NCBI RefSeq assembly: GCF_055900595.2
Contig: NZ_CM148325.1
Strand: one strand, 5' to 3'
DNA: 64,000 bases
Shown here: positions 8,271 to 58,934 of the stretch, piece after piece
Layout: the number at the start of each line of letters is the position of its first letter
Numbering within the stretch: the stretch's first letter is position 1
Notes under the pieces: model-generated
The model's database searches: none
Seen by the model: only the letters and a program-made list of their open reading frames with translations
What the model was told of the DNA's origin: nothing
Program-made: the position numbers and the translations under genes

Positions 8271-9140
8271 TTAGAACAAGTCGTTTAGCATAACCCCCAC
8301 ACCCACACGGGTCTGGTTAAAGTTATAGTCGATGAGCGATTCGCCATAACCGCTGTAAACCTGGGTATAAAGGCGCACATGCCTGGTGATCGGGTAACTT
8401 AAGCCTAACTCCGCACCACCGTAACCGGTGTTCCAGTTGTACTGTCCTTTCGCACTCAGCACCGCATCACCCAGGTGATAGCCGATTTTAAGCTGGTAGT
8501 AACCCATATATTTGGTGATATCTGGGTTATCGTCAGTATTCCCCACCACATACCACGGCTTCACCTCTACCAGCCAGTTACCGTTTTCTGCCATCAGACG
8601 GGTATAAAGGCGGTTCCAGCTGCGGGAAGTCGGGTCTGAACGCCCGTTAGAGTCGTGGTTATAACCCATCTCCACATCGCGCAGCGTCCAGCCAGCAAAG
8701 CGGTAATCTGTGGCAAAACCAAGGAACAATTGCGGTTCGTAGTTGGTTTCACGAAACGGTGAAGACTCTTCGCTATTGGACAGTTGCCACCAGGATTTTT
8801 GCGTGTAAGAAGCTCCCAACACCGAATTTGGCCCCAATATTCCGCGCCACAGCGGAAATGCCAGACTCAACTGGAATTTCACTTCATCCTTACGCGCATT
8901 TTCCGCCCAGTCATAACTGGCAATCGCTTCTTTATTCAGATCGCTGGTTTGGGTGTAGATGAGGTAGTTGGTGTCATAAGGATAGAGCGTGAAAGGATTG
9001 TCATGCTCCTGCAGCATATTCGCAATAATACTGCCACGCACCGCAGGCGCGTCATGCACCTCTTTTACCGTTGCCTCTTGCGCATACACTGCCATTGGCA
9101 ACATAAACACCGGCAACAACCAGCCCTGCAGAGTCCGCAT
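8271..9140 (-). CDS. pldA: Outer-membrane phospholipase A1 (OMPLA)
   Basis: 289-aa ORF with an N-terminal signal peptide (MRTLQGWLLPVFMLPMAVYAQEA...) and the conserved catalytic region (YNHDSNGRSDPTSRSWNR), matching PldA. Confidence 0.95.
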   Translation of the reverse strand: MRTLQGWLLPVFMLPMAVYAQEATVKEVHDAPAVRGSIIANMLQEHDNPFTLYPYDTNYLIYTQTSDLNKEAIASYDWAENARKDEVKFQLSLAFPLWRGILGPNSVLGASYTQKSWWQLSNSEESSPFRETNYEPQLFLGFATDYRFAGWTLRDVEMGYNHDSNGRSDPTSRSWNRLYTRLMAENGNWLVEVKPWYVVGNTDDNPDITKYMGYYQLKIGYHLGDAVLSAKGQYNWNTGYGGAELGLSYPITRHVRLYTQVYSGYGESLIDYNFNQTRVGVGVMLNDLF

Positions 9141-9304
9141 CGGTCGTGTTCTCCGTAACGAATTATTGATTAGATGAATATTTTTCTGCGGGCTATTTTA
9201 CATACTTAACTCCTTTGCCGTTAGTTATCCCTTCCTAAAGTAGAAACCAACAAAAAAGAAGCATAAAATCAACATTTCATTAACCAATAAAGTGTAAGGA
9301 TGAT

Positions 9305-9772
9305 ATGTCTGCCGTACTGACCGCTGAACAAGCCCTGAAATTAGTGGGTGAGATGTTTGTTTATCACATGCCATTTAACCGTGCGTTAGGGATGGAACTG
9401 GAGCGTTACGAAAAAGAGTTCGCACAGCTGGCCTTTAAAAATCAGCCAATGATGGTGGGTAACTGGGCGCAAAGCATTTTGCACGGCGGGGTCATTGCGT
9501 CGGCGCTGGATGTCGCCGCAGGTCTGGTGTGCGTGGGAAGTACCTTAACCCGCCACGAAACCATCAGTGAAGATGAACTGCGCCAGCGGCTATCGCGGAT
9601 GGGGACCATTGATCTTCGCGTCGATTATCTGCGCCCAGGCAGAGGCGAGCGTTTTACTGCTACCAGTAGCCTGTTGCGGGCAGGCAATAAAGTCGCCGTC
9701 GCCCGCGTTGAATTACACAATGAAGAACAGCTTTATATTGCCAGCGCTACAGCCACCTATATGGTAGGTTGA
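9305..9772 (+). CDS. yigI: PaaI/hotdog-fold acyl-CoA thioesterase YigI
   Basis: 155-aa ORF ([36 protein letters not shown]...), in the position and with the sequence expected for YigI. Confidence 0.9.
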
Positions 9773-9823
9773 TAACGTAAAAGCAGGTAAACTGCTTTTA
9801 CCAATAAAAAATGAGTTTTGCCA

Positions 9824-10714
9824 ATGGACACCAAACAAACGCGGCAGGGCGTATTACTCGCTCTTGCCGCTTATTTTATTTGGGGTATTGCGCCAGCGTA
9901 CTTCAAGCTGATTTACTACGTGCCCGCCGATGAGATCCTGACGCATCGCGTGATCTGGTCGTTTTTCTTTATGGTGGTGCTGATGAGCATCTGCCGCCAG
10001 TGGTCTTATTTAAAAACGCTGATTCAGACGCCACAGAAAATTTTTATGCTGGCCGTCTCTGCCGTACTGATTGGCGGCAACTGGCTACTGTTTATCTGGG
10101 CGGTGAACAATCACCATATGCTGGAAGCGAGCCTCGGTTATTTTATTAACCCACTGGTGAATATAGTGCTGGGAATGATTTTCCTCGGCGAGCGATTCCG
10201 CCGGATGCAATGGCTGGCGGTGATTCTGGCGATATGTGGTGTGTTGGTTCAGTTGTGGACTTTTGGTTCACTGCCGATTATCGCGCTGGGGCTGGCGTTT
10301 AGTTTTGCCTTCTACGGCCTGGTACGCAAGAAGATTGCTGTTGAAGCGCAAACCGGCATGTTAATCGAAACTATGTGGCTGCTGCCCGTGGCGGCGATTT
10401 ACCTGTTTGCTATTGCCGACAGCTCAACCAGCCATCTGGGGCAAAACCCGATGTCGCTGAATTTACTGCTGATCGCCGCCGGTATTGTCACTACCGTACC
10501 GCTGTTGTGTTTTACTGCGGCTGCGACACGCCTGCGTCTCTCAACGTTAGGCTTTTTTCAGTATATTGGCCCGACGCTGATGTTCCTGCTGGCTGTGACG
10601 TTTTATGGTGAAAAACCGGGTGCCGATAAGATGGTGACCTTCGCCTTTATTTGGGTGGCGCTGGCAATTTTTGTGATGGATGCGATTTATACGCAGCGTA
10701 GAACGTCCAAATAA
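9824..10714 (+). CDS. rarD: EamA/DMT-family inner-membrane protein RarD
   Basis: The track ORF starts at a TTG at 9818; the ATG at 9824 gives MDTKQTRQGVLLALAAYFIWGIAPAYFKL..., the RarD N-terminus (296 aa). Confidence 0.9.
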   Translation: MDTKQTRQGVLLALAAYFIWGIAPAYFKLIYYVPADEILTHRVIWSFFFMVVLMSICRQWSYLKTLIQTPQKIFMLAVSAVLIGGNWLLFIWAVNNHHMLEASLGYFINPLVNIVLGMIFLGERFRRMQWLAVILAICGVLVQLWTFGSLPIIALGLAFSFAFYGLVRKKIAVEAQTGMLIETMWLLPVAAIYLFAIADSSTSHLGQNPMSLNLLLIAAGIVTTVPLLCFTAAATRLRLSTLGFFQYIGPTLMFLLAVTFYGEKPGADKMVTFAFIWVALAIFVMDAIYTQRRTSK

Positions 10715-10801
10715 ATATATTCTGAAAAAATATGCCGACTCTTGCATGAGAGTGGGCATATTGTCATGCTGACAGGAGACTCACACAAGGATGTAAAATT
10801 T

Positions 10802-11182
10802 ATGTTGCGTATATTTATCCCAACATCTAACGGTAAGATTTCCAGACGTCGTTATATATTTTCATTTATTTTAATAAATTTCATTTTTGCCTTTCTTATT
10901 ATCTTTTTTAACGATGGGGACGCAGGTTTTCTTGTTATTGTCTCTACCATCGCACTCCATTATCTCGTCATCAACATGAATTGCCAACGACTCCGTGATA
11001 GTGGTTTCATATATATAAAAACTTATGTTTTTGGTACATTAGCAGTATATATCATCTCTATCATCACAATGATAGCCGAACATTTTGATTGTTCAGGCAA
11101 TGGTTCGATGATTTTTTTGATTTGTTATTTTTCTACTTTCAGTATGCTAATGCTTGCACCTACTGATTCATCAAAACAATAG
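10802..11182 (+). CDS. yigG: Small inner-membrane protein YigG
   Basis: Track ORF trimmed to the ATG at 10802 ([36 protein letters not shown]..., 126 aa). AT-rich coding sequence, located between rarD and yigF. Confidence 0.8.
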
Positions 11183-11195
11183 TTATGGAGTATTT

Positions 11196-11576
11196 ATGAG
11201 TAAGGAATATATGAACGATGGTTCATTAAGTGAAAAATGGAAATATCGCTTTAGTTTTTATGATCAACATGGCTTTCCTGGATTCTGGGGGGCAACACCA
11301 GAATATAAAGCAGCATTTAAAGCATTAAAAGTAAGACAACGATTAACTATTCAAATTAATTTCATTGCTTTCTTCTGTTCCTGGATCTATCTATTTGTTC
11401 TGGGTTTATGGAAAAAAGCAATTATAGTTCTATTACTTTGCATTCTATCTCTATTTGTTGGTGCACTAATTGGCGTTAACATTTTGGGAATTGCCGTAGC
11501 AGCCTATGTTGCTGTTAACACGAACAAATGGTTTTATGAGAAAGAGGTAAAAGGGTTAAATACCTGGAGCCTTTGA
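11196..11576 (+). CDS. yigF: Small inner-membrane protein YigF (DUF2628-type)
   Basis: Track ORF trimmed to the ATG at 11196, preceded by a GGAG Shine-Dalgarno (MSKEYMNDGSLSEKWKYRFSFYDQHGFPGFWG..., 126 aa). AT-rich. Confidence 0.8.
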   Translation: MSKEYMNDGSLSEKWKYRFSFYDQHGFPGFWGATPEYKAAFKALKVRQRLTIQINFIAFFCSWIYLFVLGLWKKAIIVLLLCILSLFVGALIGVNILGIAVAAYVAVNTNKWFYEKEVKGLNTWSL

Positions 11577-11582
11577 ATAACT

Positions 11583-11620
11583 GGTGGCTTAGCCGGGCTA
11601 AACCACCACTCTCGTTTTTT
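11583..11620 (+). terminator. Rho-independent terminator for yigG-yigF; its T-tract overlaps the corA stop codon
   Basis: GGTGGCTTAGCC-G-GGCTAAACCACC imperfect hairpin followed by CTCGTTTTTT (11611-11620), between the convergent yigF and corA. Confidence 0.65.
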
Positions 11621-12569
11621 ACAACCAGTTCTTCCGTTTAAAGTACAGATACGGTGCCAGGCCCGCGAGGATCATAAAGATAATCGCGCCTGGGTAGCCG
11701 AAGCTCCACTTCAGTTCCGGCATAAACTCAAAGTTCATCCCGTAGCTGGAAGCGACCAGCGTCGGTGGCAGGAACACCACGGATACCACCGAGAAGATTT
11801 TGATGATGCGGTTCTGCTCGATATTGATAAAGCCCATCGCCGCCTGCATCAGGAAGTTCACCTTCTGGAACAGGGATTCGTTATGCGGCAGCAGGGATTC
11901 GATATCTCGCAGGATTTCACGCGCCTGTTCCAGTTGCCCACCCGGTAAGCGTGCTTTACGTACCAGGAAGTTGAGCGCGCGCTGGGTATCCATCAGACAC
12001 AGGCGAACTTTCCAGCCGATATCTTCCAGTTCCGCCAGCGTGGAGAGCGCCTCGTCGTACTCATCGCCCTGATGCCCTTCCATAATTACCCGGCTCAACT
12101 GCTCCAGGTCGCTGTAGATATTTTCAATTTCATCTGCCAACTGTTCGATTTTGGTTTCGAACAGATCCAGCAGCAGCTCGTAGGCGTTACCGTCCACCAT
12201 TGACTGGCTACGGGCACGCATACGATACAGACGAAAAGCGGGCAGTTCACGCTCACGCAGAGTAAACAGACGACCATCACGGATGGTAAATGCCACAGTG
12301 GAGTTACCGGCGTGATCTTCCGCATCTTCAAAGAAGAAGAAGGAGTGAATATGCAGGCCGTCATCGTCTTCAAAGAAACGTGCCGATGCTTCGATGTCTT
12401 CCAGTTCCGGGCGGGTTGCCAGGCTCTGCCCAAGTTCAGATTGTACGCGCAGTCGCTCGTCGTCATCCGGTTCGACAAGATCAATCCATACTGCATTTAC
12501 AAGGGGTTGTGACTCTTCGACTTCCAGCCGGGTCAGTCGGTTATTTTCCAGTTGAAATGCGCTCAGCAT
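11619..12569 (-). CDS. corA: Mg2+/Co2+ transporter CorA
   Basis: Track ORF trimmed to the ATG at 12567-12569 ([23 protein letters not shown]...). C-terminal [10 protein letters not shown] carries the CorA GMN signature. 316 aa. Confidence 0.95.
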
Positions 12570-12938
12570 GACCGGGACTCCCAATGCTTAAAATATCGGA
12601 CAGTTCGGTGGGCACACAGAAACAAATTGGGTTTCAGACCATTAAACAGCCTGACTCAGCGCGACGGGAAAAATTGAGGTCGCTGACAACCGCTAAGGCT
12701 ATCAGCAAAAAGGGATAGCCTTAGGAGTTGATCCTGGATGACAGGATAATGAGCCAGTATCTACTGGGTGTGTCCAAGGCGAATGTCCTCTTAGAGTGAT
12801 CGTGCGCGCATGTTACGCCAGCAAAATTTTGCCGTCAACACGCAACAGAACACCACAGAACAATAGTTGAACTTCGCGCTTTTTGGTACTCGTCAAGGTC
12901 GCTAACAGGATAAAAAAATCCCACATCCAGGACCTATA

Positions 12939-13703
12939 ATGGCGCATCGGCTACTCATTGGTAAAGGAATGATCACCTTGAATCTCAAACGGATTTTTCT
13001 CGCCCTCACCTTACTTCCCTTGTTTGCTGTTGCCGCTGATGATTGCGCACTATCAGATCCGACACTGACCGTACAGGCGTATACCGTTAATCCTCAAACA
13101 GAGCGGGTGAAAATGTACTGGCAAAAAGCCAATGGCGAAGCGTGGGAAACGTTACATGCGCTGCTGACGGATATTAATAGTCAGGGTCAGGTGCAAATGG
13201 CGATGAACGGCAGCATATATGATGAAAGCTATGCGCCGCTCGGTTTGTACATCGAAAACGGTCAGCAGAAGGTGGCGTTAAATCTCGCTTCAGGTGAAGG
13301 GAATTTCTTTATCCGTCCTGGCGGTGTGTTTTATGTCGCGGGAGATAAAGTCGGCATCGTTCGTCTGGATGCCTTTAAAACCAGTAAAGAGATTCAGTTC
13401 GCGGTGCAGTCAGGGCCAATGTTGATGGAAAACGGCGTCATTAATCCGCGTATTCATCCCAACGTCGCCTCACGCAAAATTCGTAACGGTGTTGGGATTA
13501 ATAAACAAGGGAACGCCGTGTTTTTGTTGAGCCAGCAGGTGACAAATTTTTATGATTTTGCCTGTTATGCCAAAACGAAACTGAACGTTGAGCAACTGCT
13601 TTATCTTGATGGCACGATTTCACATATGTATGTGAAAGGCGGGGCAATCCCGTGGCAACGCTATCCTTTTGTTACCATGATTTCCGTCGAGCAGAAAAGT
13701 TAA
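12939..13703 (+). CDS. yigE: Conserved exported protein YigE (DUF2233)
   Basis: 254-aa ORF with a signal-like N-terminus (…LKRIFLALTLLPLFAVAADDCA…), between corA and uvrD as in E. coli. Confidence 0.85.
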   Translation: MAHRLLIGKGMITLNLKRIFLALTLLPLFAVAADDCALSDPTLTVQAYTVNPQTERVKMYWQKANGEAWETLHALLTDINSQGQVQMAMNGSIYDESYAPLGLYIENGQQKVALNLASGEGNFFIRPGGVFYVAGDKVGIVRLDAFKTSKEIQFAVQSGPMLMENGVINPRIHPNVASRKIRNGVGINKQGNAVFLLSQQVTNFYDFACYAKTKLNVEQLLYLDGTISHMYVKGGAIPWQRYPFVTMISVEQKS

Positions 13704-13738
13704 AACAACCGTTTTGTGTCACTGAATATGGTGCAGAT

Positions 13739-13841
13739 GCCGGATGCGGCGTAAACGCCTTACCCGGCCTACATGACATTGCAATTTATTGAATCTACAT
13801 GATTTTGTAGGCCGGATAAGGTGCGCAGCACCGCATCCGGC
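13739..13841. repeat. BIME: two REP elements in inverted orientation
   Basis: GCCGGATGCGGCGTAAACGCCTTACCCGGCCTAC (13739-13773) and the inverted copy GTAGGCCGGATAAGGTGCGCAGCACCGCATCCGGC (13808-13841), between the convergent yigE and uvrD. Confidence 0.8.
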
Positions 13842-13845
13842 AACG

Positions 13846-16008
13846 TTATACCGTCTCCAGCCGGGCGTAAGCCGCCACCAGCCATTTAATACCCTGGCCC
13901 TGAAATGCCACCTGCAAACGACTATGTTCGCCGCTGCCTTCCATATTGACGATAGTCCCTTCACCAAACTTGGCGTGTCGTACGCGCTGGCCGAGTTTGT
14001 AACCGCTGTCGTTCTCAACCATCGGCGTACCCATACGCTGATGGCTGACCGGGCGGCTTACCGTAGCGCGTAAACGCACCTCTTCCACACACTCTTCCGG
14101 CAACTCGCCAATAAAACGCGACGGGCGATGGTAAACCTCTTTGCCATACAGACGCCGGGTTTCCGCGTAGGTCAGCGTCAGTTTCTGCATCGCGCGGGTT
14201 ACGCCAACGTAGGCCAGACGGCGTTCTTCTTCCAGACGCCCGCCTTCATCCAGCGACATCTGGCTTGGGAACATGCCCTCTTCCATACCGACAATAAACA
14301 CCTGCGGGAATTCCAGACCTTTCGCCGAGTGTAGCGTCATCAGCTGTACCGCATCCTGCCAGGTATCCGCCTGCCCTTCACCTGCTTCCAGTGCCGCATG
14401 GGAGAGGAACGCCTGCAGCGGCATTAAATCTTCGTCTTCTTCGTTGTAGCTGAACTGGCGCGTTGCCGTCACCAGTTCCTCTAAGTTTTCGATACGCGTC
14501 TGGCCTTTTTCGCCCTTCTCTTGCTCGTACATGGTGCGCAGGCCGGAGTCTTTAATTACCCGATCAGTCTGTACATGCAGCGGCATATCGGCAGTTTCTT
14601 GCGCTAAGGCGTCGATCAGTTCCATAAACCGTTGCAAAGCGCTGGCAGCACGTCCGGCGAGGGCTTTTTCCTGCAACAGTTCACGACATGCCTGCCAGAG
14701 TGTTAACTGGCGATCGCGCGATGTCTGACGTACCACGTCCAGCGTCCGGTCACCAATACCCCGCGTTGGCGTATTCACCACGCGCTCAAAGGCCGCGTCG
14801 TCGTTACGGTTGGCAATCAGGCGCAGATACGAGAGCGCATCTTTGATTTCCTGGCGTTCGAAGAAGCGCATCCCGCCATAAATACGGTACGGCATACTGG
14901 CTTGTAATAACGCCTCTTCCAGTACACGCGACTGGGCATTGCTACGATAGAGAATGGCGCACTCGGCGAGCGCCCCGCCGTTGTCCTGCCAGGTCTTGAT
15001 GCGGTTAACAACAAAACGCGCTTCGTCGAGTTCGTTAAAAGCGCAATAGAGGGAAATCGGCTCACCGTCCGCGCCATCGGTCCACAACTTTTTACCCAAA
15101 CGCCCGTTGTTGTTTTCAATCAAGGCGTTCGCCGCGCTCAGGATATTGCTAGTGGAGCGGTAGTTTTGCTCCAGACGGATAGTTTCGGCACCGGGGAAAT
15201 CATTGAGGAAACGCTGAATATTCTCCACCTGCGCCCCGCGCCAGCCGTAGATTGACTGGTCGTCATCGCCAACAATCATCACTTTGCCAGTATCGCCCGC
15301 CAGCAGGCGGATCCACGCGTACTGAATGTTGTTGGTATCCTGGAATTCGTCTACCAGGATATTGGTAAAACGTTCGCGGTAGTGTTGCAGGATATGCGGC
15401 TTGTTAAGCCACAGTTCGTGGGCGCGTAGCAGTAGTTCAGCGAAGTCTACCAGGCCCGCGCGGTCGCACGCTTCCTGATACGCCTGGTACACCTTCTGCC
15501 AGGTCTGCTCCACCGGATTACCGTAGCTTTGAATATGATGCGGACGCAGCCCTTCATCTTTCTGGCTGTTGATGTACCACATTGCCTGGCGCGGCGGCCA
15601 CTGCTTCTCGTCGAGGTTCATGGCTTTGATCAGACGCTTAAGCAGGCGCAGCTGGTCTTCGCTGTCGAGGATCTGGAAATCCTGCGGCAGGTTGGCGTCC
15701 ATATGGTGCGCACGCAGCAGACGGTGTGCCAGCCCGTGGAAAGTGCCGACCCATATACCGCCCTGGCTGGTACCCATCAGTTGCCCGATACGATGGCGCA
15801 TTTCCGCCGCCGCTTTGTTGGTAAATGTCACCGCCATAATCGAGTACGGCGAGCAGTTTTCCACGCTCATCAGCCAGGCGATACGATGCACCAGTACGCG
15901 CGTCTTACCACTGCCCGCGCCCGCCAGCACCAGAAGGTTGCTGCGTGGCGCGGCCACCGCTTCGCGCTGTTTGTCATTAAGGCTGTCGAGCAGGTAAGAA
16001 ACGTCCAT
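13846..16008 (-). CDS. uvrD: DNA helicase II UvrD
   Basis: Track ORF (782 aa) trimmed to the ATG at 16006-16008, giving [40 protein letters not shown]... (720 aa), a UvrD/Rep superfamily-1 helicase. Confidence 0.95.
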   Translation of the reverse strand: MDVSYLLDSLNDKQREAVAAPRSNLLVLAGAGSGKTRVLVHRIAWLMSVENCSPYSIMAVTFTNKAAAEMRHRIGQLMGTSQGGIWVGTFHGLAHRLLRAHHMDANLPQDFQILDSEDQLRLLKRLIKAMNLDEKQWPPRQAMWYINSQKDEGLRPHHIQSYGNPVEQTWQKVYQAYQEACDRAGLVDFAELLLRAHELWLNKPHILQHYRERFTNILVDEFQDTNNIQYAWIRLLAGDTGKVMIVGDDDQSIYGWRGAQVENIQRFLNDFPGAETIRLEQNYRSTSNILSAANALIENNNGRLGKKLWTDGADGEPISLYCAFNELDEARFVVNRIKTWQDNGGALAECAILYRSNAQSRVLEEALLQASMPYRIYGGMRFFERQEIKDALSYLRLIANRNDDAAFERVVNTPTRGIGDRTLDVVRQTSRDRQLTLWQACRELLQEKALAGRAASALQRFMELIDALAQETADMPLHVQTDRVIKDSGLRTMYEQEKGEKGQTRIENLEELVTATRQFSYNEEDEDLMPLQAFLSHAALEAGEGQADTWQDAVQLMTLHSAKGLEFPQVFIVGMEEGMFPSQMSLDEGGRLEEERRLAYVGVTRAMQKLTLTYAETRRLYGKEVYHRPSRFIGELPEECVEEVRLRATVSRPVSHQRMGTPMVENDSGYKLGQRVRHAKFGEGTIVNMEGSGEHSRLQVAFQGQGIKWLVAAYARLETV

Positions 16009-22449: not shown

Positions 22450-23774
22450 AAGGTCAAATAATCACTGTTGCACTCATCCTGTTGGGGCACATATTTCTGA
22501 CGCCTGCTGTACAGGCCATAGGGTTCGACTATTACAATGATCACGGTGTTATGTCTTACGGTAAAGGTTATGGGGAGGATGAGAAAATCATTGCCCAATT
22601 TCCGAAGATGAACAGAGCCGATTTACGCCTTGTGACAAATATATCCAGGGAGCGGGAGTTGGTGGAAGGCTATATACCCACCGATGAAATAAGCATAAAA
22701 AATGAGGAATACCACTGGGTGACAGACGGCCGCGTTATTCTCTGGCGTGGCAAAATCGTTAGCAATCCACCGGGAACACCCACTGTCGATATTGCCAGCT
22801 TTCAGGCTATGGGCCGCTTCGCGGTCGATAAATATAGCCTCTATTTTGACGGACAGCGCACCGAAAGTAATAGCGGCGCGTCACGTGTTGATCTGGCGAC
22901 ACTAAAAGCTATCGAAGGTAACTCTACCACGCTGGTGGATAGTAAAAATCTCTATTTGTCCGGTCGACGTCAGGGGAGCAGCAGTAATGTTACTGTATTA
23001 GAAAAAAGATGGTGGGGTATTAATCCACGTCTTATGAGTGTAAACAGAAATTTGTATTCCAATGATCTGCTTATCCGCAGTGGGCAGAATATTTATTTAA
23101 ATGGCGTTCACCTTACGGCGAATGCAGACTCATTTGAGATAATTCGCTGGATACCTCATTCACTGCTGGTTTTTCGCGACAATAAGGGTATGCATCGTTA
23201 TCCCTTTGGGCAATTGTCTGGCAAAGCGATACCCGTAGATGATGACGTCTCTTTTGAAGTAGGGGAAAGTCGCGTTCGCTGGCGTAAACAGCTCACGTCC
23301 GACCGTCAGTGGAGCCAGTGGATAGACCTACCAGGTATTGAACCTGAACAATTTCATCTGATTACTGACAATATTGCGCAGTATAAAGATCGGCTGTATG
23401 TAACAAAATTATCGACTTTTGGTGAAGACCAGCTTGAAATAATCCCGCTGGATTTGCCAGACCTGGTCATTGATCACTCATTTAATCGCGGCAAACAGCA
23501 TGCTTACTTTATCCACCAATTACGGTCACGCAAGAGCGTGCAAATTATTCCAGTTAACGGCCCGCTAACTAAAAACGATCGCTTTGCTTATGACGATCGC
23601 AATGTTTATACATGGACCGATACAGAGGTAAGGATTACACCCTCCCCCTGCCCAGCGAAAACATACGTCAGAGAAAAGAATGTCCGTGAAATTCATAATA
23701 GCGACATTATTATTCCGGTGACGGAGGAATCGTGCCGGAACGCAGCAGCAGACGGGCAAACTTTGAAGCCCTGA
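22446..23774 (+). CDS. Secreted protein with DKNYY-like repeats (paralogue 2); function unknown
   Basis: 442-aa ORF whose ATG overlaps the stop of the upstream gene (ATGA at 22446-22449), with GAGG 8 nt upstream. Sec-type signal MKGQIITVALILLGHIFLTPAVQA. Alignable blocks shared with paralogue 1: W.SDGR.IL..G..V.NP...P.VDIASF.A.G.FA.DK.SLYF.G.RT and G..PEQFH.I.D..AQY.D.LY. Confidence 0.75.
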   Translation: MKGQIITVALILLGHIFLTPAVQAIGFDYYNDHGVMSYGKGYGEDEKIIAQFPKMNRADLRLVTNISRERELVEGYIPTDEISIKNEEYHWVTDGRVILWRGKIVSNPPGTPTVDIASFQAMGRFAVDKYSLYFDGQRTESNSGASRVDLATLKAIEGNSTTLVDSKNLYLSGRRQGSSSNVTVLEKRWWGINPRLMSVNRNLYSNDLLIRSGQNIYLNGVHLTANADSFEIIRWIPHSLLVFRDNKGMHRYPFGQLSGKAIPVDDDVSFEVGESRVRWRKQLTSDRQWSQWIDLPGIEPEQFHLITDNIAQYKDRLYVTKLSTFGEDQLEIIPLDLPDLVIDHSFNRGKQHAYFIHQLRSRKSVQIIPVNGPLTKNDRFAYDDRNVYTWTDTEVRITPSPCPAKTYVREKNVREIHNSDIIIPVTEESCRNAAADGQTLKP

Positions 23775-31219: not shown

Positions 31220-31222
31220 TCT

Positions 31223-31252
31223 ATATCGCCTCGTTCAGAGGCGATATTTTTT
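31223..31252 (+). terminator. Rho-independent terminator of the hem operon
   Basis: ATATCGCCTC–GTTCA–GAGGCGATAT hairpin followed by TTTTT, starting 4 nt after the hemY stop. Confidence 0.7.
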
Positions 31253-31258
31253 ACCAGG

Positions 31259-31858
31259 ATGTCAAAATTGCGCACGCCGTCCCGCTATCTTTTCCGCTTG
31301 CCATCGCATGAAATTACTCCTTTTCGGGCAACGCTCTTTTTAATCTTGTTGATATGTGCCGCTCTGGCTGGCGTAAGTTGGCTGATTATTTCCTTTGTGC
31401 GTACGGGCAATACATTCATCTTCTGGTTAACACTTTTTATTGGGTATCTGATAGCTGCGGCGAAGCAGGAAAAAATCAAGCTCCTCAAGAAGTACCGAAT
31501 CATGGCAGATAAACGTCGGGTACGCTCCATTTGCCAGTTCGCCCGCGAATTTGACACCTACACCGTAGATACATGGGTGATTCGTGCGGTGTGGGATACC
31601 TTGCAAGGAAACGGCTATATCGATTACCCACTGCCACTGAAAGCCGATGATATACTGGACGATGATCTGGATTTGGTGCGCGACGCAGTCGAGTTAGAAG
31701 AGCTGGTTGAAGATACCGCTGCTCGTTGCGGGCGCGATCTATGCGGAATAGAAGAGAATCCGTTTCTTCCCATCGTCACGGTAGGCTCTCTTGTAAGAGT
31801 TTTAAACGCGCAACCGATGACCCAGGAGCGACGTAACCAGTTCTTTATTCGGTCATAA
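31259..31858 (+). CDS. Hypothetical membrane-anchored protein (two predicted transmembrane helices and an acidic cytoplasmic domain); function unknown
   Basis: 199-codon ORF starting 7 nt after the hemY terminator T-tract, with its stop (TAA, 31856-31858) overlapping the 3' end of GlmZ on the opposite strand. N-terminus TLFLILLICAALAGVSWLIISFV / FIFWLTLFIGYLIAAA; C-terminal acidic stretch DDILDDDLDLVRDAVELEELVED. Ordinary codon usage by eye. No convincing Shine-Dalgarno (only AGG abutting the ATG). I do not recognise the protein. Confidence 0.5.
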   Translation: MSKLRTPSRYLFRLPSHEITPFRATLFLILLICAALAGVSWLIISFVRTGNTFIFWLTLFIGYLIAAAKQEKIKLLKKYRIMADKRRVRSICQFAREFDTYTVDTWVIRAVWDTLQGNGYIDYPLPLKADDILDDDLDLVRDAVELEELVEDTAARCGRDLCGIEENPFLPIVTVGSLVRVLNAQPMTQERRNQFFIRS

Positions 31859-32063
31859 AAAAACGCCTGCTCTTATTACGGAGCAGGCGTTAAAACAGGT
31901 CTGTATGACAACAAGTGGGTGCTTCACTCAACGTTGTGTCCATGGTGTCTGATGAGGCATAAGCGACATCTGTCAGTGGACGATAAGCACCGTAAACGGC
32001 TCTGCGTCATTCCGGAGTTTATGAGGCACTAAGGCGAACATAAGAGATGGAATGAGCATCTAC
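31857..32063 (-). ncRNA. glmZ: Small regulatory RNA GlmZ (activator of glmS translation)
   Basis: Reverse complement of 31857-32063 reads GTAGATGCTCATTCCATCTCTTATGTTCGCC...AACGCCTGCTCCGTAATAAGAGCAGGCGTTTTTTT, matching GlmZ (207 nt) including its 3' terminator hairpin and U-tract. Lies between hemY and aslA as expected. Confidence 0.9.
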
Positions 32064-32487
32064 TCGTTTAGTATGCCACAGAGAACCGGGAAATAACATC
32101 CCTTAACACTTGTTATGAGATAATTCTGTAATCCTCTTTGCTTCCTGAGTAATAACTTCCTGAGTGAATATTTCTCCTGCGCACGATTCTACACATATAT
32201 ATAATGAATAATAAAAGTCATTCAATTAATAATATATATATTAATTGCCATTAAAACTAAAAACAGCATCAATAATCAACGCGATATAACATCACCGCCT
32301 TACATATCACCTGCGCCAGAGGTAGGATTGAAAACGCTCTCCTGATTTTCAAATTCATTATCTGGATAAATAAATAATTTATTTTCATCACTATTATTTA
32401 TGCAATCATCCTGTCAGGGAGAGGGATCTCAATTATCAATGCTTAATTACGTCAACATTTTGACGACATGAAACCGGAGCATTTTGC

Positions 32488-34143
32488 ATGGAATTTTCGT
32501 TTTCACCCAAACTTCTTGTTGTGGCTGTCGCCGCCGCTCTTCCACTCATGGCCAGCGCAGCAGATACCCCGTCAACCGCCACCGCACGCAAAGGCTTTGC
32601 CGGATACGATCACCCAAACCAGTATCTGGTTAAACCGGCGACCACTATTGCCGACAACATGATGCCGGTGATGCAGCATCCTGCACAAGACAAAGAAACC
32701 CAGCAGAAGCTGGCGGAATTAGAGAAAAAGACCGGTAAGAAACCGAACGTGGTTGTTTTCTTGCTGGATGATGTGGGCTGGATGGACGTTGGCTTTAACG
32801 GCGGCGGCGTGGCGGTGGGTAACCCTACACCAGATATCGACGCCGTTGCCAGCCAGGGGCTGATTTTAACTTCGGCGTATTCTCAACCGAGTTCTTCCCC
32901 AACCCGCGCCACGATTCTCACCGGACAATACTCCATCCACCACGGCATTCTGATGCCGCCAATGTACGGGCAACCGGGCGGTCTGCAAGGGTTAACCACT
33001 CTGCCGCAGTTGCTGCACGATCAGGGCTACGTCACCCAGGCCATCGGGAAATGGCATATGGGGGAAAACAAAGAGTCGCAGCCGCAGAACGTTGGCTTTG
33101 ATGATTTCCGCGGCTTTAACTCGGTATCCGATATGTATACCGAATGGCGTGATGTTCATGTCAACCCGGAAGTCGCCCTGAGCCCGGATCGTTCTGAATA
33201 CATCCAAAAACTGCCGTTCAGCAAAGATGACGTTCATGCCGTGCGCGGCGGTGAACAGGAAGCCATTGCCGACATTACGCCGAAATATATGGAAGACCTG
33301 GATCAACGCTGGATGGAATATGGCGTTAAGTTCCTCGACAAGATGGCGAAGAGCGATAAGCCTTTCTTCCTCTACTACGGCACTCGCGGCTGTCACTTCG
33401 ATAACTACCCAAATGCGAAATATGCGGGTAGCTCTCCGGCGCGCACCTCTTACGGCGACTGCATGGTGGAGATGAACGATATCTTCGCCAATCTGTATAA
33501 AGCACTGGAGAAAAACGGTCAGCTTGATAACACGCTGATTGTGTTCACCTCTGATAACGGTCCGGAAGCTGAAGTTCCGCCGCACGGTCGCACGCCGTTC
33601 CGCGGTGCGAAAGGTTCTACATGGGAAGGCGGCGTTCGTGTGCCAACCTTCGTTTACTGGAAAGGGATGATCCAACCGCGTAAATCTGACGGTATTGTCG
33701 ATCTGGCGGATCTCTTCCCTACGGCGCTGGATCTGGCAGGACATCCTGGAGCGAAAGTGGCGAATTTAGTGCCGAAAACCACCTTTATTGATGGTGTGGA
33801 CCAGACATCTTTCTTCCTGGGAACAAATGGTCAGTCTAACCGTAAGGCCGAGCACTACTTCCTCAACGGCAAACTTTCTGCTGTGCGTATGGATGAGTTT
33901 AAATATCACGTACTCATCCAACAGCCATACGCTTATACCCAGAGCGGGTATCAGGGTGGATTCACCGGCACAGTAATGCAAACGGCGGGATCGTCGGTGT
34001 TTAACCTGTACACCGATCCGCAGGAAAGCGACTCTATCGGCGTGCGCCATATCCCAATGGGTGTACCGCTACAGACCGAAATGCACGCGTATATGGAGAT
34101 CCTGAAAAAATATCCGCCGCGCGCGCAGATTAAATCTGATTAA
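32488..34143 (+). CDS. aslA: Arylsulfatase-like protein AslA (Ser-type sulfatase)
   Basis: 551-aa ORF with a signal peptide ([27 protein letters not shown]) and the sulfatase signature around [15 protein letters not shown] (S-x-P-x-R). Convergent with aslB. Confidence 0.95.
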
Positions 34144-49491: not shown

Positions 49492-50595
49492 TTATTTGGT
49501 TAAATTGGGGCTGCCACCACGATTTCTACGCAGTCTGCGTTTTACGCGCTTAATAAAGCGAGCAACTTTCCAGGCACGCTTAATGCAATATCCATAGAGG
49601 AAGAATGCTAGCAAAAAGAGCACCAGCATGACCCATTCCGGGACAAAATGAGAGTATTCTGCCAGCACGCCAATTGAGGCGAGCAGTGCTGCGGCAAGGG
49701 TAATCAGCACAAACGCCTGGCGGGAAGTAAACCCGGCACGCATGATCAAATGGTGAATATGCTGACGGTCAGGAGAGAATGGGCTCATGCCTTTACGCAG
49801 GCGACGGTACATAATTGCCACCATATCCATTAGCGGAATGGCGATAATCCATAATGCAGTAACCGGGCTTATTGGGTGCGTTTTTCCCTGAGTCGTTTCG
49901 AGCAGGATCCAGATAACGGTAAAACCAATCAGCGTACTGCCCGCATCACCCATAAAGACTTTGTAGCGGCGACCCAGGATACCAAGGTTGAGCATGATAT
50001 AGGGCAGGATGGCGGCGATCATCGCAAAGCACCAGATAGCGAGGCTGGTTTGCCCGTCGAACCACAAAATCATACCGATTGCTGCAAACGAGACGCAGGA
50101 CAACCCGCCCAGCAAGCCATCAATGCCATCAACCATGTTGAAAGCATTAATTGCCGCCCAGACGGCAAATAGCGTCAGGAAGTAGCCAAACGGTCCGAGC
50201 ACCATCTCCCAGGAGCCAAAGATATAACCCAGGCTACTGAGATAAAGTTTGCCGAACACCATCATAACAATGCCAACAGCGGCCTGTATGGTGGCACGGA
50301 TTTTTACGCTGATATCAAAACGGTCATCCAGCGCACCGATGAACACAAGCACACCGGCACAAGCGAGATAGAGAGATGCATGCGGAATATAATAATCGAC
50401 AATTCCGAACGTGAAGCAAATCCCTGCGTAAACCGAAATACCCCCAACGAGAGGTATCAATCCCTGGTGACGTTTGCGGAAGTTAGGTTTATCCACTAAA
50501 CCGACTTTTTTTGCTACCTTTCGGGCAAAAAACAGAAACAGTGTCGTGAATAAAAAAATACTGATGAGATCAGTACTCACTGTCAGTAAATTCAC
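49492..50595 (-). CDS. wecA: UDP-GlcNAc:undecaprenyl-phosphate GlcNAc-1-phosphate transferase
   Basis: 367-aa polytopic ORF of the MraY/WecA family; first gene of the wec cluster, downstream of rho. Confidence 0.95.
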   Translation of the reverse strand: MNLLTVSTDLISIFLFTTLFLFFARKVAKKVGLVDKPNFRKRHQGLIPLVGGISVYAGICFTFGIVDYYIPHASLYLACAGVLVFIGALDDRFDISVKIRATIQAAVGIVMMVFGKLYLSSLGYIFGSWEMVLGPFGYFLTLFAVWAAINAFNMVDGIDGLLGGLSCVSFAAIGMILWFDGQTSLAIWCFAMIAAILPYIMLNLGILGRRYKVFMGDAGSTLIGFTVIWILLETTQGKTHPISPVTALWIIAIPLMDMVAIMYRRLRKGMSPFSPDRQHIHHLIMRAGFTSRQAFVLITLAAALLASIGVLAEYSHFVPEWVMLVLFLLAFFLYGYCIKRAWKVARFIKRVKRRLRRNRGGSPNLTK

Positions 50596-50785
50596 AATGC
50601 ATGCTCTCAGAGAAAATTATTAGCAGAAGTATAACCACGAAGACCTTTATTCAGAAGGGAAAGTCCGTTCCGAACCCACCAGTCCTGTGCAAAAATTAAT
50701 CATTCGATATGCAAATTGCATAACACACGAGCAAAACCCAGGAATTTTCCTAACATTGCCAGTGCGGCAATAAGATTACAGATAT

Positions 50786-50820
50786 AAAAGCAAAACGCCA
50801 CGTAAACACGTGGCGTTTTT
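50786..50820 (-). terminator. Intrinsic (bidirectional-looking) terminator downstream of rho
   Basis: Perfect palindrome AAAACGCCACG–TAAACA–CGTGGCGTTTTT with A/T runs on both sides, 15 bp after the rho stop codon. Confidence 0.7.
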
Positions 50821-50834
50821 GGCATAAGACAAAT

Positions 50835-52094
50835 TTATGAGCGCTTCATCATTTCGAAGAAATCGTCATTGGTCTTGGTCATCGCCAGTTTATTAATGAG
50901 GAACTCCATGGCATCGATTTCGCCCATCGGGTGAATGATTTTGCGCAGGATCCACATTTTCTGCAGCTCTTCCTGAGTAGTGAGCAGCTCTTCTTTACGG
51001 GTACCGGAACGGTTGTAGTCGATTGCCGGGAAGACGCGTTTTTCAGCGATCTTACGAGAGAGGTGCAGTTCCATGTTGCCTGTACCTTTAAACTCTTCGT
51101 AGATAACTTCGTCCATCTTGGAACCGGTATCGATAAGCGCGGTAGCGATGATGGTCAGGCTGCCGCCCTCTTCCACATTACGCGCCGCACCGAAGAAGCG
51201 TTTCGGGCGATGCAGGGCGTTGGCATCCACACCACCGGTCAGCACTTTACCTGACGCCGGAACAACGGTGTTGTAAGCACGCGCCAAACGAGTGATGGAG
51301 TCGAGCAGAATGATAACGTCTTTCTTGTGCTCAACCAGGCGTTTCGCCTTCTCGATCACCATTTCCGCAACCTGAACGTGGCGAGATGCGGGTTCGTCAA
51401 AGGTGGAAGCAACAACTTCACCTTTTACCAGACGCTGCATCTCGGTGACTTCTTCCGGACGTTCGTCAATCAGCAGAACCATCAGCACACAATCCGGGTG
51501 GTTGTAAGCAATGCTCTGAGCAATGTTCTGCAGCAGCATGGTTTTACCGGCTTTCGGCGGTGCCACAATCAGACCACGCTGACCACGACCGATAGGTGAT
51601 GCCAGATCCAGTACGCGAGCGGTTAAATCTTCAGTAGAACCGTTACCACGTTCCATGCGCAGACGAGAGTTTGCGTGCAGCGGGGTTAAGTTCTCAAAGA
51701 GGATTTTGTTGCGGGCGTTTTCAGGTTTGTCGAAGTTAACTTCGTTAACTTTCAGCAGCGCAAAATAGCGTTCACCTTCTTTCGGCGGGCGAATCTTACC
51801 AGAGATGGTATCACCAGTGCGGAGGTTGAAACGGCGGATTTGGCTAGGAGAAACGTAGATGTCATCAGGACCGGCGAGGTAGGAGCTGTCTGCGGAACGG
51901 AGGAAACCAAATCCATCCTGCAATATCTCCAGTACGCCATCACCAAAGATATCTTCGCCACTCTTTGCGTGCTGCTTCAGGATGGCAAAAATAATGTCCT
52001 GCTTACGCATACGAGCCAGGTTTTCCAGCCCCATATTTTCGCCGAGAGTGATCAGCTCAGAAACCGGCGTATTCTTTAATTCGGTAAGATTCAT
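50835..52094 (-). CDS. rho: Transcription termination factor Rho
   Basis: Track ORF (443 aa) trimmed to the ATG at 52092-52094, giving [44 protein letters not shown]... (419 aa) with a Walker A motif (APPKAGKT). Confidence 0.97.
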
Positions 52095-57835: not shown

Positions 57836-58051
57836 AGGTGTATTGCTCAATCTTCGAACGGGGGGAGGATTGTAGCAGAATCGCATTTGAATGTGACCGA
57901 GTGAAAACCGCTAACCGGATGGCTGCGGATGTTTAAATCAGAGAGGGAAGGCCGAAACCGGAGTGCATCATGAATCCATTAGACTTAGAAAATATCGGGT
58001 CGTAACGTTGTGTTATTACTTTTTCAGAGTTTACTAAGGAGAGGTTTACTC

Positions 58052-58501
58052 GTGGCGATTAATTTCAGCCCCAAGGTTGGTGAAATACTGGAATGCAACT
58101 TTGGTAACTATCCTGTTAGCCAGAATGGACAGTTCAGCACGACGTATTACGATGGCCGCATTCCACCTGAGATGATAAAAAATAGGTTGGTTGTCGTGCT
58201 CAACGGAAAAATTAATGGCAACGCATGTATCGTCGTTCCATTATCAACCACTCGCGACCATGACAAGTTAAATCGTGGAATGCATGTTGAAATAGCCAGT
58301 AATGTTATCAATGACCTGCAATTCTTTGATCAGCAGATACGTTGGGCTAAAGCCGACCTGGTACAACAAGTCAGTCGAAACCGATTAAACAGAGCAAGGA
58401 CTTATCGGGGGTATCTTAATCAATGTTTGCCACATGAGTTGGTTGCAGACATACAGAGGGCAGTCATCAAGTCAATCAATGCCATATCGCTCATAAATTG
58501 A
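58052..58501 (+). CDS. yifN: PemK/MazF-like (yifN-type) protein, apparently intact
   Basis: Track ORF 58010..58501. I prefer the GTG at 58052 because AAGGAGAGG lies 7 nt upstream. PemK/MazF-like blocks: PKVGEILECNFG (compare P-x-x-G-E/D-I/L-W), RLVVVLNG and CIVVPLSTT. Similarity judged by eye only. Confidence 0.65.
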   Translation: MAINFSPKVGEILECNFGNYPVSQNGQFSTTYYDGRIPPEMIKNRLVVVLNGKINGNACIVVPLSTTRDHDKLNRGMHVEIASNVINDLQFFDQQIRWAKADLVQQVSRNRLNRARTYRGYLNQCLPHELVADIQRAVIKSINAISLIN

Positions 58502-58578
58502 CAATAAAATCACCATCCCCGATAATGACTCTGTAGCCCATAGAGGCCCTAAGTTTTCTCCCCTTGAGGGACCTGCGA

Positions 58579-58600
58579 AGCCCGGATTTTCCGGGCTTTT
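58579..58600 (+). terminator. Candidate intrinsic terminator downstream of yifN
   Basis: AGCCCGG–ATTTT–CCGGGCT hairpin followed by TTTT. Confidence 0.5.
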
Positions 58601-58628
58601 GCCATATATGTCCCCCCTCCCTGACTGA

Positions 58629-58934
<306 letters not shown>

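Follow-up and report, generated by a model that had tools for sequence, protein, structure and literature searches.

The window analyzed here, a stretch of 64,000 nucleotides on contig NZ_CM148325.1 of assembly GCF_055900595.2, is part of the E. coli chromosome, with the gene order pldA-yigI-rarD-yigG-yigF-corA-yigE-uvrD as determined from its open reading frames, megablast against 5426 complete genomes and the K-12 RefSeq annotation. Two small genes, yigG and yigF, lie between the convergent genes rarD and corA in an AT-rich insert. The features of this region are as follows (positions are those of the window).

9824-10714, plus strand: rarD, core flank; its last four or so codons are remodeled by the insert
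About 10705-11618, no strand assigned: AT-rich insert of about 914 bp (GC 0.344, measured on 10703-11618)
10715-10801, plus strand: leader from the rarD stop to the yigG ATG (GC 0.38)
10729-10762, minus strand: left hairpin with 14-nt arms that are 93% complementary
10802-11182, plus strand: yigG, 126 aa, predicted four-helix membrane protein and divergent DUF805 relative (K-12 RefSeq annotation)
10859-10891, plus strand: the AT run TTTTCATTTATTTTAATAAATTTCATTTTTGCC that had first drawn attention to the segment, inside yigG in the codons of the first transmembrane helix
10953-11102, plus strand: homologue of the K-12 'yigG 1.2' fragment, with an AT-tract at about 11010-11031 and TGGTACATT at 11032-11040
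11196-11576, plus strand: yigF, 126 aa, small membrane protein, DUF2628 (annotation and Pfam PF10947)
11582-11608, no strand assigned: right hairpin, located between the stop codons of yigF and corA
11615-11620, plus strand: T6 run overlapping the corA stop codon at 11619-11621
11619-12569, minus strand: corA, core flank (ORF and annotation)

A preliminary description had delimited the yigG-yigF segment as 10742-11576. Its AT-rich core stands, but the start that it implied for yigG and its extent do not. The segment ends at the yigF stop (11576) and begins where a mechanical ORF of 146 aa has its TTG (10742), whereas the annotated start of yigG is the ATG at 10802, which has an AAGGA Shine-Dalgarno sequence on its 5' side and is supported by an NCBIfam equivalog match (PRK11371, residues 1-126, 251.9 bits with a cutoff of 217). 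The AT-rich unit is also wider than the segment and reaches from about 10705 to 11618.

The segment 10742-11576 has a GC content of 0.338 compared with 0.521 for the whole window, which corresponds to z = -5.1 among 63,166 placements of 835 bp (mean GC 0.521, sd 0.036). The placement with the lowest GC of all, 10709-11543 (0.331), overlaps the segment almost entirely, and the second-lowest GC region in the window has a value of 0.404. Read in the correct frames, yigG has a GC of 0.323 and a GC3 of 0.294 and yigF a GC of 0.344 and a GC3 of 0.270, whereas GC3 is 0.622 in rarD and 0.627 in corA. Both genes fall about 6 sd below the 24 long ORFs in the window that served as reference (mean GC3 0.594, sd 0.050, minimum 0.495). 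The segment had been singled out as conspicuously AT-rich relative to its neighbors, and this is what we observed: the sliding-window comparison places GC and GC3 far below those of the flanking genes, with the AT-richness that is one mark of foreign DNA.

The insert stands where most Enterobacterales have a GC-rich hairpin spacer of 41-96 bp between the convergent rarD and corA. On the left, the window departs from genomes with an empty site at about position 10705, within the last four rarD codons, after ...CAGCGTAGAAC; on the right, alignment with the empty sites resumes exactly at the corA stop codon, at 11619. We found no direct or inverted repeats bracketing the insert and no integrase or transposase ORFs near it in the window, and there is no tRNA beside it, the nearest ones lying at 35.7-36.1 kb. 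By these features it does not look like a classical mobile element or island. An Rfam search of 9000-14000 gave no match in the segment and only sub-threshold hits to the REP-like naRNA4 near 13.7-13.9 kb. The upstream part of the leader is kept even in E. coli in which yigGF is replaced by a DUF3289/DUF943 gene pair: in a BLAST comparison with one such genome (L004), window positions 10501-10889 align (84% with gaps) and the sequences are divergent beyond.

We then surveyed 80 corA loci from Enterobacterales, one genome per species, by tblastn for RarD, YigG, YigF, DUF3289 and DUF943. The convergent adjacency of rarD and corA was nearly universal. A gap of 41-96 bp with one GC-rich hairpin was present in most Enterobacter, Citrobacter, Klebsiella, Kluyvera, Cedecea, Hafnia, Yersinia and Erwinia, and also in an assembly labeled E. 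coli (L006). The gap contained yigGF in Escherichia, Superficieibacter, Pseudescherichia, Phytobacter, Kosakonia, Mangrovibacter and Atlantibacter subterranea, as well as in Escherichia sp. E1V33, 'Enterobacter sp. Bisph1' and Enterobacter sp. E76; in E. albertii only YigF was seen, in a truncated locus, and in Salmonella assemblies yigF adjoins corA. Gaps filled by yigGF were 0.9-1.1 kb long with a GC of 0.34-0.45 compared with 0.49-0.57 for their flanks. In more distant genera, among them Serratia, Pectobacterium, Pantoea, Dickeya and Franconibacter, the gap was taken up by unrelated genes whose GC is normal. The presence/absence survey that had been suggested as a check of foreign origin therefore gave an empty gap in most Enterobacterales and yigGF in a patchy minority of genera, at least eight of which share the gene pair at this position, with YigG identity down to 23-50%. 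The history is either one ancient gain followed by many losses, or several gains. Patchiness extends to serovars: yigG has been reported in Salmonella Typhimurium, Typhi and Saintpaul (82% amino-acid identity to K-12) and as absent in Enteritidis, and its deletion in Salmonella caused modest attachment and chlorine phenotypes (PMC3579871).

Synonymous divergence between yigGF orthologues is saturated, and an ancient acquisition fits for that reason. All orthologues nevertheless have a GC3 of 0.27-0.44, compared with 0.59-0.71 in the host flanks. Judged from these values, simple amelioration of yigGF has not happened despite saturated dS. Either the low GC is actively kept up, for instance to preserve H-NS control, or an AT-rich pool has repeatedly supplied the cassette anew. 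As an observation in its own right, a GC3 in this range at saturated dS counts against a classical, slowly ameliorating old acquisition. Persistence of AT-richness through saturating divergence is a modestly interesting by-product of the survey, and it bears on the old question of whether the low GC of "foreign" genes is a passing trace of where they came from or a feature that is preserved; the rarD-corA locus is a compact and experimentally tractable case for this question.

The survey also adds that the locus has several states, of which the silent cassette is one. Of 5426 complete E. coli genomes, 2962 carried the full yigGF cassette (55%, a fraction of clinically biased complete assemblies and not of lineages). 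About 2400 of these carriers have a K-12-like or window-like allele, with 11 at least 99% identical to the window. A further 565 genomes have an allele (L002) with 78% DNA identity to that of the window and a YigF 99% identical to that of E. albertii, so a deeply diverged yigGF allele common to E. albertii is circulating in E. coli. Between the window and this allele, dS is 0.69 for yigG and 1.17 for yigF but 0.145 for rarD and 0.023 for corA. Such high values in the cassette next to low values in the flanks indicate that the 78% allele was introgressed or anciently maintained and did not arise by local divergence. This polymorphism is, like the persistent AT-richness, modestly interesting.

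About half of sequenced E. coli have a T6SS-type toxin/immunity pair in place of, or besides, yigGF. This YPO3983/DUF3289 plus DUF943 pair was found in the gap in 2623 genomes (about 48% of complete E. coli, again counted over assemblies), and has recently been demonstrated to be a colicin-M-like T6SS-type toxin with its immunity protein (PMC11148199), here as an orphan effector-immunity pair. We observed three arrangements. In the first, the pair lies in tandem after yigGF and a 147-bp corA 3' fragment (L093). In the second, it follows a scar of yigG codons ~9-30 (L004, roughly 1000 genomes). In the third, the pair is preceded by another left module, made up of a membrane protein of 99 aa, a yigG-like ORF that lacks annotation and the corA fragment (L003); this type accounts for 1431 genomes including O157:H7, and 28 genomes have a short deletion derivative of it. 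In Atlantibacter and in Enterobacter sp. E76 we likewise saw tandems that include fragments of rarD and corA. IS1 copies lie in or beside the cassette in a few genomes.

The DUF3289/DUF943 pair resembles yigGF in that it is a two-gene cassette in the same rarD-corA gap with the same direction of transcription and, in L004-type genomes, lies 3' of the same rarD-proximal leader. Its proteins have no sequence relationship to YigG or YigF, however, and the two cassettes are not strict alternatives, as shown by the tandems in L022, L090 and L093. Foreign 147-bp corA 3' fragments sit between the modules. The duplicated flank fragments and the lack of mobility genes suggest that exchange proceeds through recombination in the flanking sequence.

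The K-12 counterpart of the segment is a 'promoter island', a class of sequence for which Shavkunov et al. (2009) is a further source. It forms Figure 1 of Panyukov & Ozoline (2013; PMC3661553), where the K-12 locus 4000528_663 qualifies as an island by the PlatProm criterion. In Table 1 of that paper (row 4000528_663), it is listed with predictions of foreign origin from Nakamura 2004 and from Lawrence & Ochman 1998 and as H-NS binding category 'A', that is, bound in all ChIP-chip studies tabulated for K-12. A small silencing EPOD covers yigF, yigG and rarD (Freddolino et al, 2021, Fig 7C; PMC8282354), and yigG contains an H-NS-repressed intragenic promoter that needs an AT-tract and sigma70 R451 (PMC7229825). 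Consulting the published H-NS data, as had been recommended, thus yielded binding, an EPOD and a repressed promoter, all at the K-12 locus.

The window allele is 96% identical to that of K-12. Window positions 10953-11102 are identical at 144 of 150 positions to the K-12 fragment set by the primers of that promoter study, and the AT-tract and the -10 region TGGTACATT are unchanged. We infer from this conservation that the intragenic yigG promoter would be active in the window strain also, and H-NS binding and silencing, shown in the literature for K-12, presumably extend to it. Scans of the window itself showed no enrichment: the high-affinity H-NS motif TCGATAAATT, allowing up to 2 mismatches, occurs 67 times in the window (57 ± 7 expected) and 2 times in the segment, and a simple sigma70 scan of 10400-12900 returned 3 sites compared with 4.4 ± 2.0 in shuffled sequences.

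Horizontal origin and H-NS silencing of yigG-yigF are correct, ordinary and already published for K-12, where the locus is itself a published example of promoter islands, EPODs and H-NS-silenced DNA (AT-rich, predicted foreign, H-NS-bound, covered by an EPOD and containing a spurious promoter). As a textbook-style case of AT-rich, H-NS-bound foreign DNA, the finding itself matters little. The window differs from the K-12 example in carrying another allele, one matched at 99% identity or more in only 11 of the 5426 complete genomes. The unit differs from large islands in that it is only 0.9 kb long, has no mobility genes and occupies a site conserved across genera. The preliminary description had called the segment anciently acquired and probably H-NS-silenced: saturated dS fits the first and the K-12 literature the second, but the cassette is not a fixed relic and has not ameliorated.

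It had also been proposed that the segment ends in a strong terminator whose T-tract overlaps the corA stop codon. The GC-rich stem-loop (11582-11608), the T6 run and the overlap are present, but the term "strong" does not hold. The T6 run lies 6 nt from the hairpin, compared with the canonical U-tract spacing of 0-2 nt, and a consensus terminator scan did not call the hairpin. On the plus strand it folds with -14.4 kcal/mol (z -2.6) and on the corA strand with -21.8 kcal/mol (z -4.8). The plus-strand fold is modest because of a C·A mismatch in the RNA of the yigF strand; the same arm position on the corA strand is U·G in the window allele. Both the K-12 allele and the THO-003 allele (~78% identical to that of the window) retain the hairpin. 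It resembles the bidirectional intrinsic terminators of convergent genes in being GC-rich, in its place between two stop codons and in having an A-run or T-run nearby, but it is canonical in neither direction, with the U6 of the yigF strand 6 nt past the stem and AGUUAUUC as the tail on the corA strand. In our reading, the two genes share a non-canonical 3'-end hairpin, which belongs to corA at least as much as to yigF and is not a strong yigF terminator.

The left hairpin has a predicted free energy of -18.3 kcal/mol on the minus strand (z -3.1) and -22.3 kcal/mol on the plus strand (z -3.8). AUUUUUU follows it on the minus strand, and there is no U-tract on the plus strand. Aligning the K-12 and THO-003 alleles, we read one compensatory change from A-U to G-C. 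With its minus-strand tail, the left hairpin resembles an intrinsic terminator that would act on transcripts running out of the cassette toward rarD. Since its U-tract is on the minus strand only, the two end hairpins face outward from the cassette.

We consider it very probable that yigG-yigF as a whole is a horizontally derived accessory cassette that is silenced by H-NS, selectively kept and bounded by outward-facing hairpins. Its two genes would encode small inner-membrane proteins, and in the rarD-corA gap it would have replaced an ancestral short, GC-rich hairpin spacer. Because there are no mobility genes or flanking repeats, homologous recombination within the highly conserved rarD and corA sequences on either side is the probable route by which the cassette is spread and exchanged. 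Its low GC would make it a substrate for H-NS filaments and keep it largely silent, and H-NS would also silence promoter-like sequences that arise by chance within AT-rich coding DNA. The end hairpins probably curb read-through into rarD antisense and corA antisense, with the right one probably doubling as the 3' end of corA. Since the genes are intact and under purifying selection, they are presumably used under some condition that relieves repression.

A broader reading takes the rarD-corA gap as a conserved cassette-exchange site of the Enterobacteriaceae and yigGF as a conditional module for competition or envelope protection, with its AT-richness selected for H-NS control instead of being a sign of foreign DNA yet to ameliorate. 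We think this unlikely. A toxin/immunity role is documented for DUF3289/DUF943, and nothing in our analysis extends it to yigGF. In this reading, small modules related to the envelope would be stacked and exchanged through recombination in the almost invariant flanks. The modules at the proposed exchange site comprise yigG-yigF, the 99-aa protein with its yigG-like gene, and the DUF3289/DUF943 pair.

The silenced accessory cassette might alternatively be a recent arrival on a mobile element (an IS, an integron cassette or a phage remnant) that has not yet ameliorated. Low GC without amelioration, presence/absence polymorphism in E. coli and IS1 in or near the cassette in a few genomes would all agree with this. 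We nevertheless regard it as highly improbable: the window has no integrase, transposase or flanking repeats, eight or more genera carry the pair at this site with saturated dS and YigG identities down to 23-50%, and the IS1 copies entered individual genomes secondarily. A PADLOC search at E ≤ 0.1 with YigG, YigF and the 99-aa protein found in the L003 type likewise gave no match.

Hardly any weight can be given to the idea that yigG and yigF are native genes, neither horizontally derived nor silenced, which are AT-rich because small hydrophobic membrane proteins use the codons for Phe, Ile, Leu, Asn, Lys and Tyr. The fraction of FLIMNKY residues is indeed 0.54 in YigG and 0.49 in YigF compared with 0.45 in RarD, and back-translation of the two proteins with host codon usage by itself lowers the expected GC to 0.43-0.46 from a host ORF mean of 0.535. 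The observed GC of 0.32-0.34, however, is another 0.11-0.12 lower, and GC3 is 0.27-0.29 instead of the expected 0.59. About half of the GC deficit comes from amino-acid composition and about half from codon choice. RarD, although likewise a polytopic membrane protein, has a GC3 of 0.62; AT-richness extends to the non-coding leader, and the gap is empty in most relatives. As the sole explanation, amino-acid composition is ruled out by GC3.

There is virtually no room for the suggestion that the yigG and yigF ORFs are spurious, in an AT-rich non-coding spacer or a decayed pseudogene, although the genes lack a known function, stay silent in standard conditions and are often truncated or frameshifted in database entries: this reading is ruled out by the selection signal, and the conserved ORF lengths and YigG motif, a confident structural model of YigG, a DUF2628 match of YigF above threshold and the phenotypes of the Salmonella yigG deletion (PMC3579871) also oppose it. 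Over pairs with 97% to 44% amino-acid identity, dN/dS is 0.13-0.27 for yigG and 0.04-0.17 for yigF. Across genera, YigG orthologues are 121-142 aa long and keep the motif N-x-N-x-Q-R-x-R-D-S-G, and most YigF proteins have 126-130 aa. By these substitution patterns, yigG and yigF are real genes under purifying selection.

YigG and YigF show no similarity to each other by BLASTP and are therefore not tandem paralogues, though both have 126 aa. YigF passes the threshold for Pfam DUF2628 (PF10947; 39.1 bits, cutoff 23). Its distant DUF2628 homologues in Pseudomonas are encoded by a solitary gene adjoining sbcCD and batD, with no DUF805 partner and no clue to function. YigG scores 17.3 bits against Pfam DUF805 (PF05656), under the gathering cutoff of 25.7, and its orthologues score 12.9-22.1 bits. 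Its AlphaFold2 model (pLDDT 85) has helices at residues 15-37, 42-67, 72-92 and 100-118, and a Foldseek search of this model against the PDB returned no match with E < 6. We also built a profile from 11 YigG orthologues and searched it against 1.84 billion representative proteins, which yielded only 57 representative clusters at E ≤ 1e-3. Its weak matches (E 1e-8 to 1e-5) include proteins that score 27-117 bits on DUF805, and since this weak tail consists of bona fide DUF805 proteins, YigG is a small, divergent offshoot of the DUF805 superfamily. It differs from DUF805 by its sub-threshold score and very small clade, but has the predicted four-helix layout in common with it, and its R-x-R-D-S-G loop motif resembles the RRLHD-G motif of DUF805.

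The rarD–corA gap is occupied in several ways. Of the complete E. coli genomes, about 48% have a YPO3983/DUF3289 gene there together with a DUF943 gene; this pair has been described as encoding a colicin-M-like T6SS effector and the matching immunity protein (PMC11148199). The pair may replace yigGF, with a scar corresponding to yigG codons ~9–30 left behind, or lie in tandem 3′ of yigGF, with a duplicated 147-bp corA 3′ fragment between them. The features of the gap are as follows:

Window 10705–11618 and loci L003 (O157:H7-type), L004 (yigG-scar type) and L093 (tandem type): rarD–corA gap in its different states, with yigGF in the window and the DUF3289/DUF943 pair in the three loci
L002 1710–2485 and L005 5997–6374: diverged yigGF allele, with the YigF match to E. 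albertii
L003 1659–2583: O157:H7-type left module, with the gene for a 99-aa protein (minus strand), a 128-aa ORF (plus strand) and a corA 3′ fragment
Window 10729–10762: hairpin in the rarD–yigG leader, with A6 upstream (T6 downstream on the minus strand)
Window 10708–10714, compared with L001 at about 1609–1622: rarD stop region

The cassette itself also varies. In 565 of the 5426 complete genomes yigGF is present as an allele that shares just 78% identity with the window's, and its YigF is 99% identical to E. albertii YigF. Because the flanking corA is 99–100% identical, the sequence comparison points to introgression or to an allele kept for long. The O157:H7-type left module (1431 genomes) encodes an annotated 99-aa membrane protein and an unannotated 128-aa ORF whose product (MFKSSIRNIF...) can be aligned to YigG and retains the R-x-R-D-x-G motif; after these comes a foreign corA 3′ fragment with 90% identity to corA. 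IS1 copies lie within or beside yigGF in single genomes (E. coli JMF1 and TOE3), and many database YigF entries, including that of locus L092, are truncated or frameshifted, which suggests that the cassette decays often.

At the rarD end, insertion of yigGF altered the RarD C-terminus from ...RRTRLGN, as in genomes with an empty site, to ...RRTSK. At the rarD stop, 7 bp (AAATAAA) are duplicated in K-12 and THO-003 but not in the window. The leader hairpin resembles a terminator for transcripts leaving the cassette in the direction of rarD, and a single base pair in it differs between alleles by a compensatory change.

Elsewhere in the window, the second most AT-rich stretch is the hemY–aslA gap (31220–32487; GC 0.40 at 31689–32523), which is 1.27 kb long as against about 0.68 kb in K-12. 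It contains a 199-aa ORF (31259–31858) with a predicted membrane N-terminus and is probably another variable accessory insert. Further local GC minima (0.435–0.44) fall at 22881–23715, 50300–51134 and 57929–58763. Between yigE and uvrD (13711–13883), both strands match the Rfam families naRNA4 and ES036 below threshold, and these matches look like REP-type palindromic repeats.
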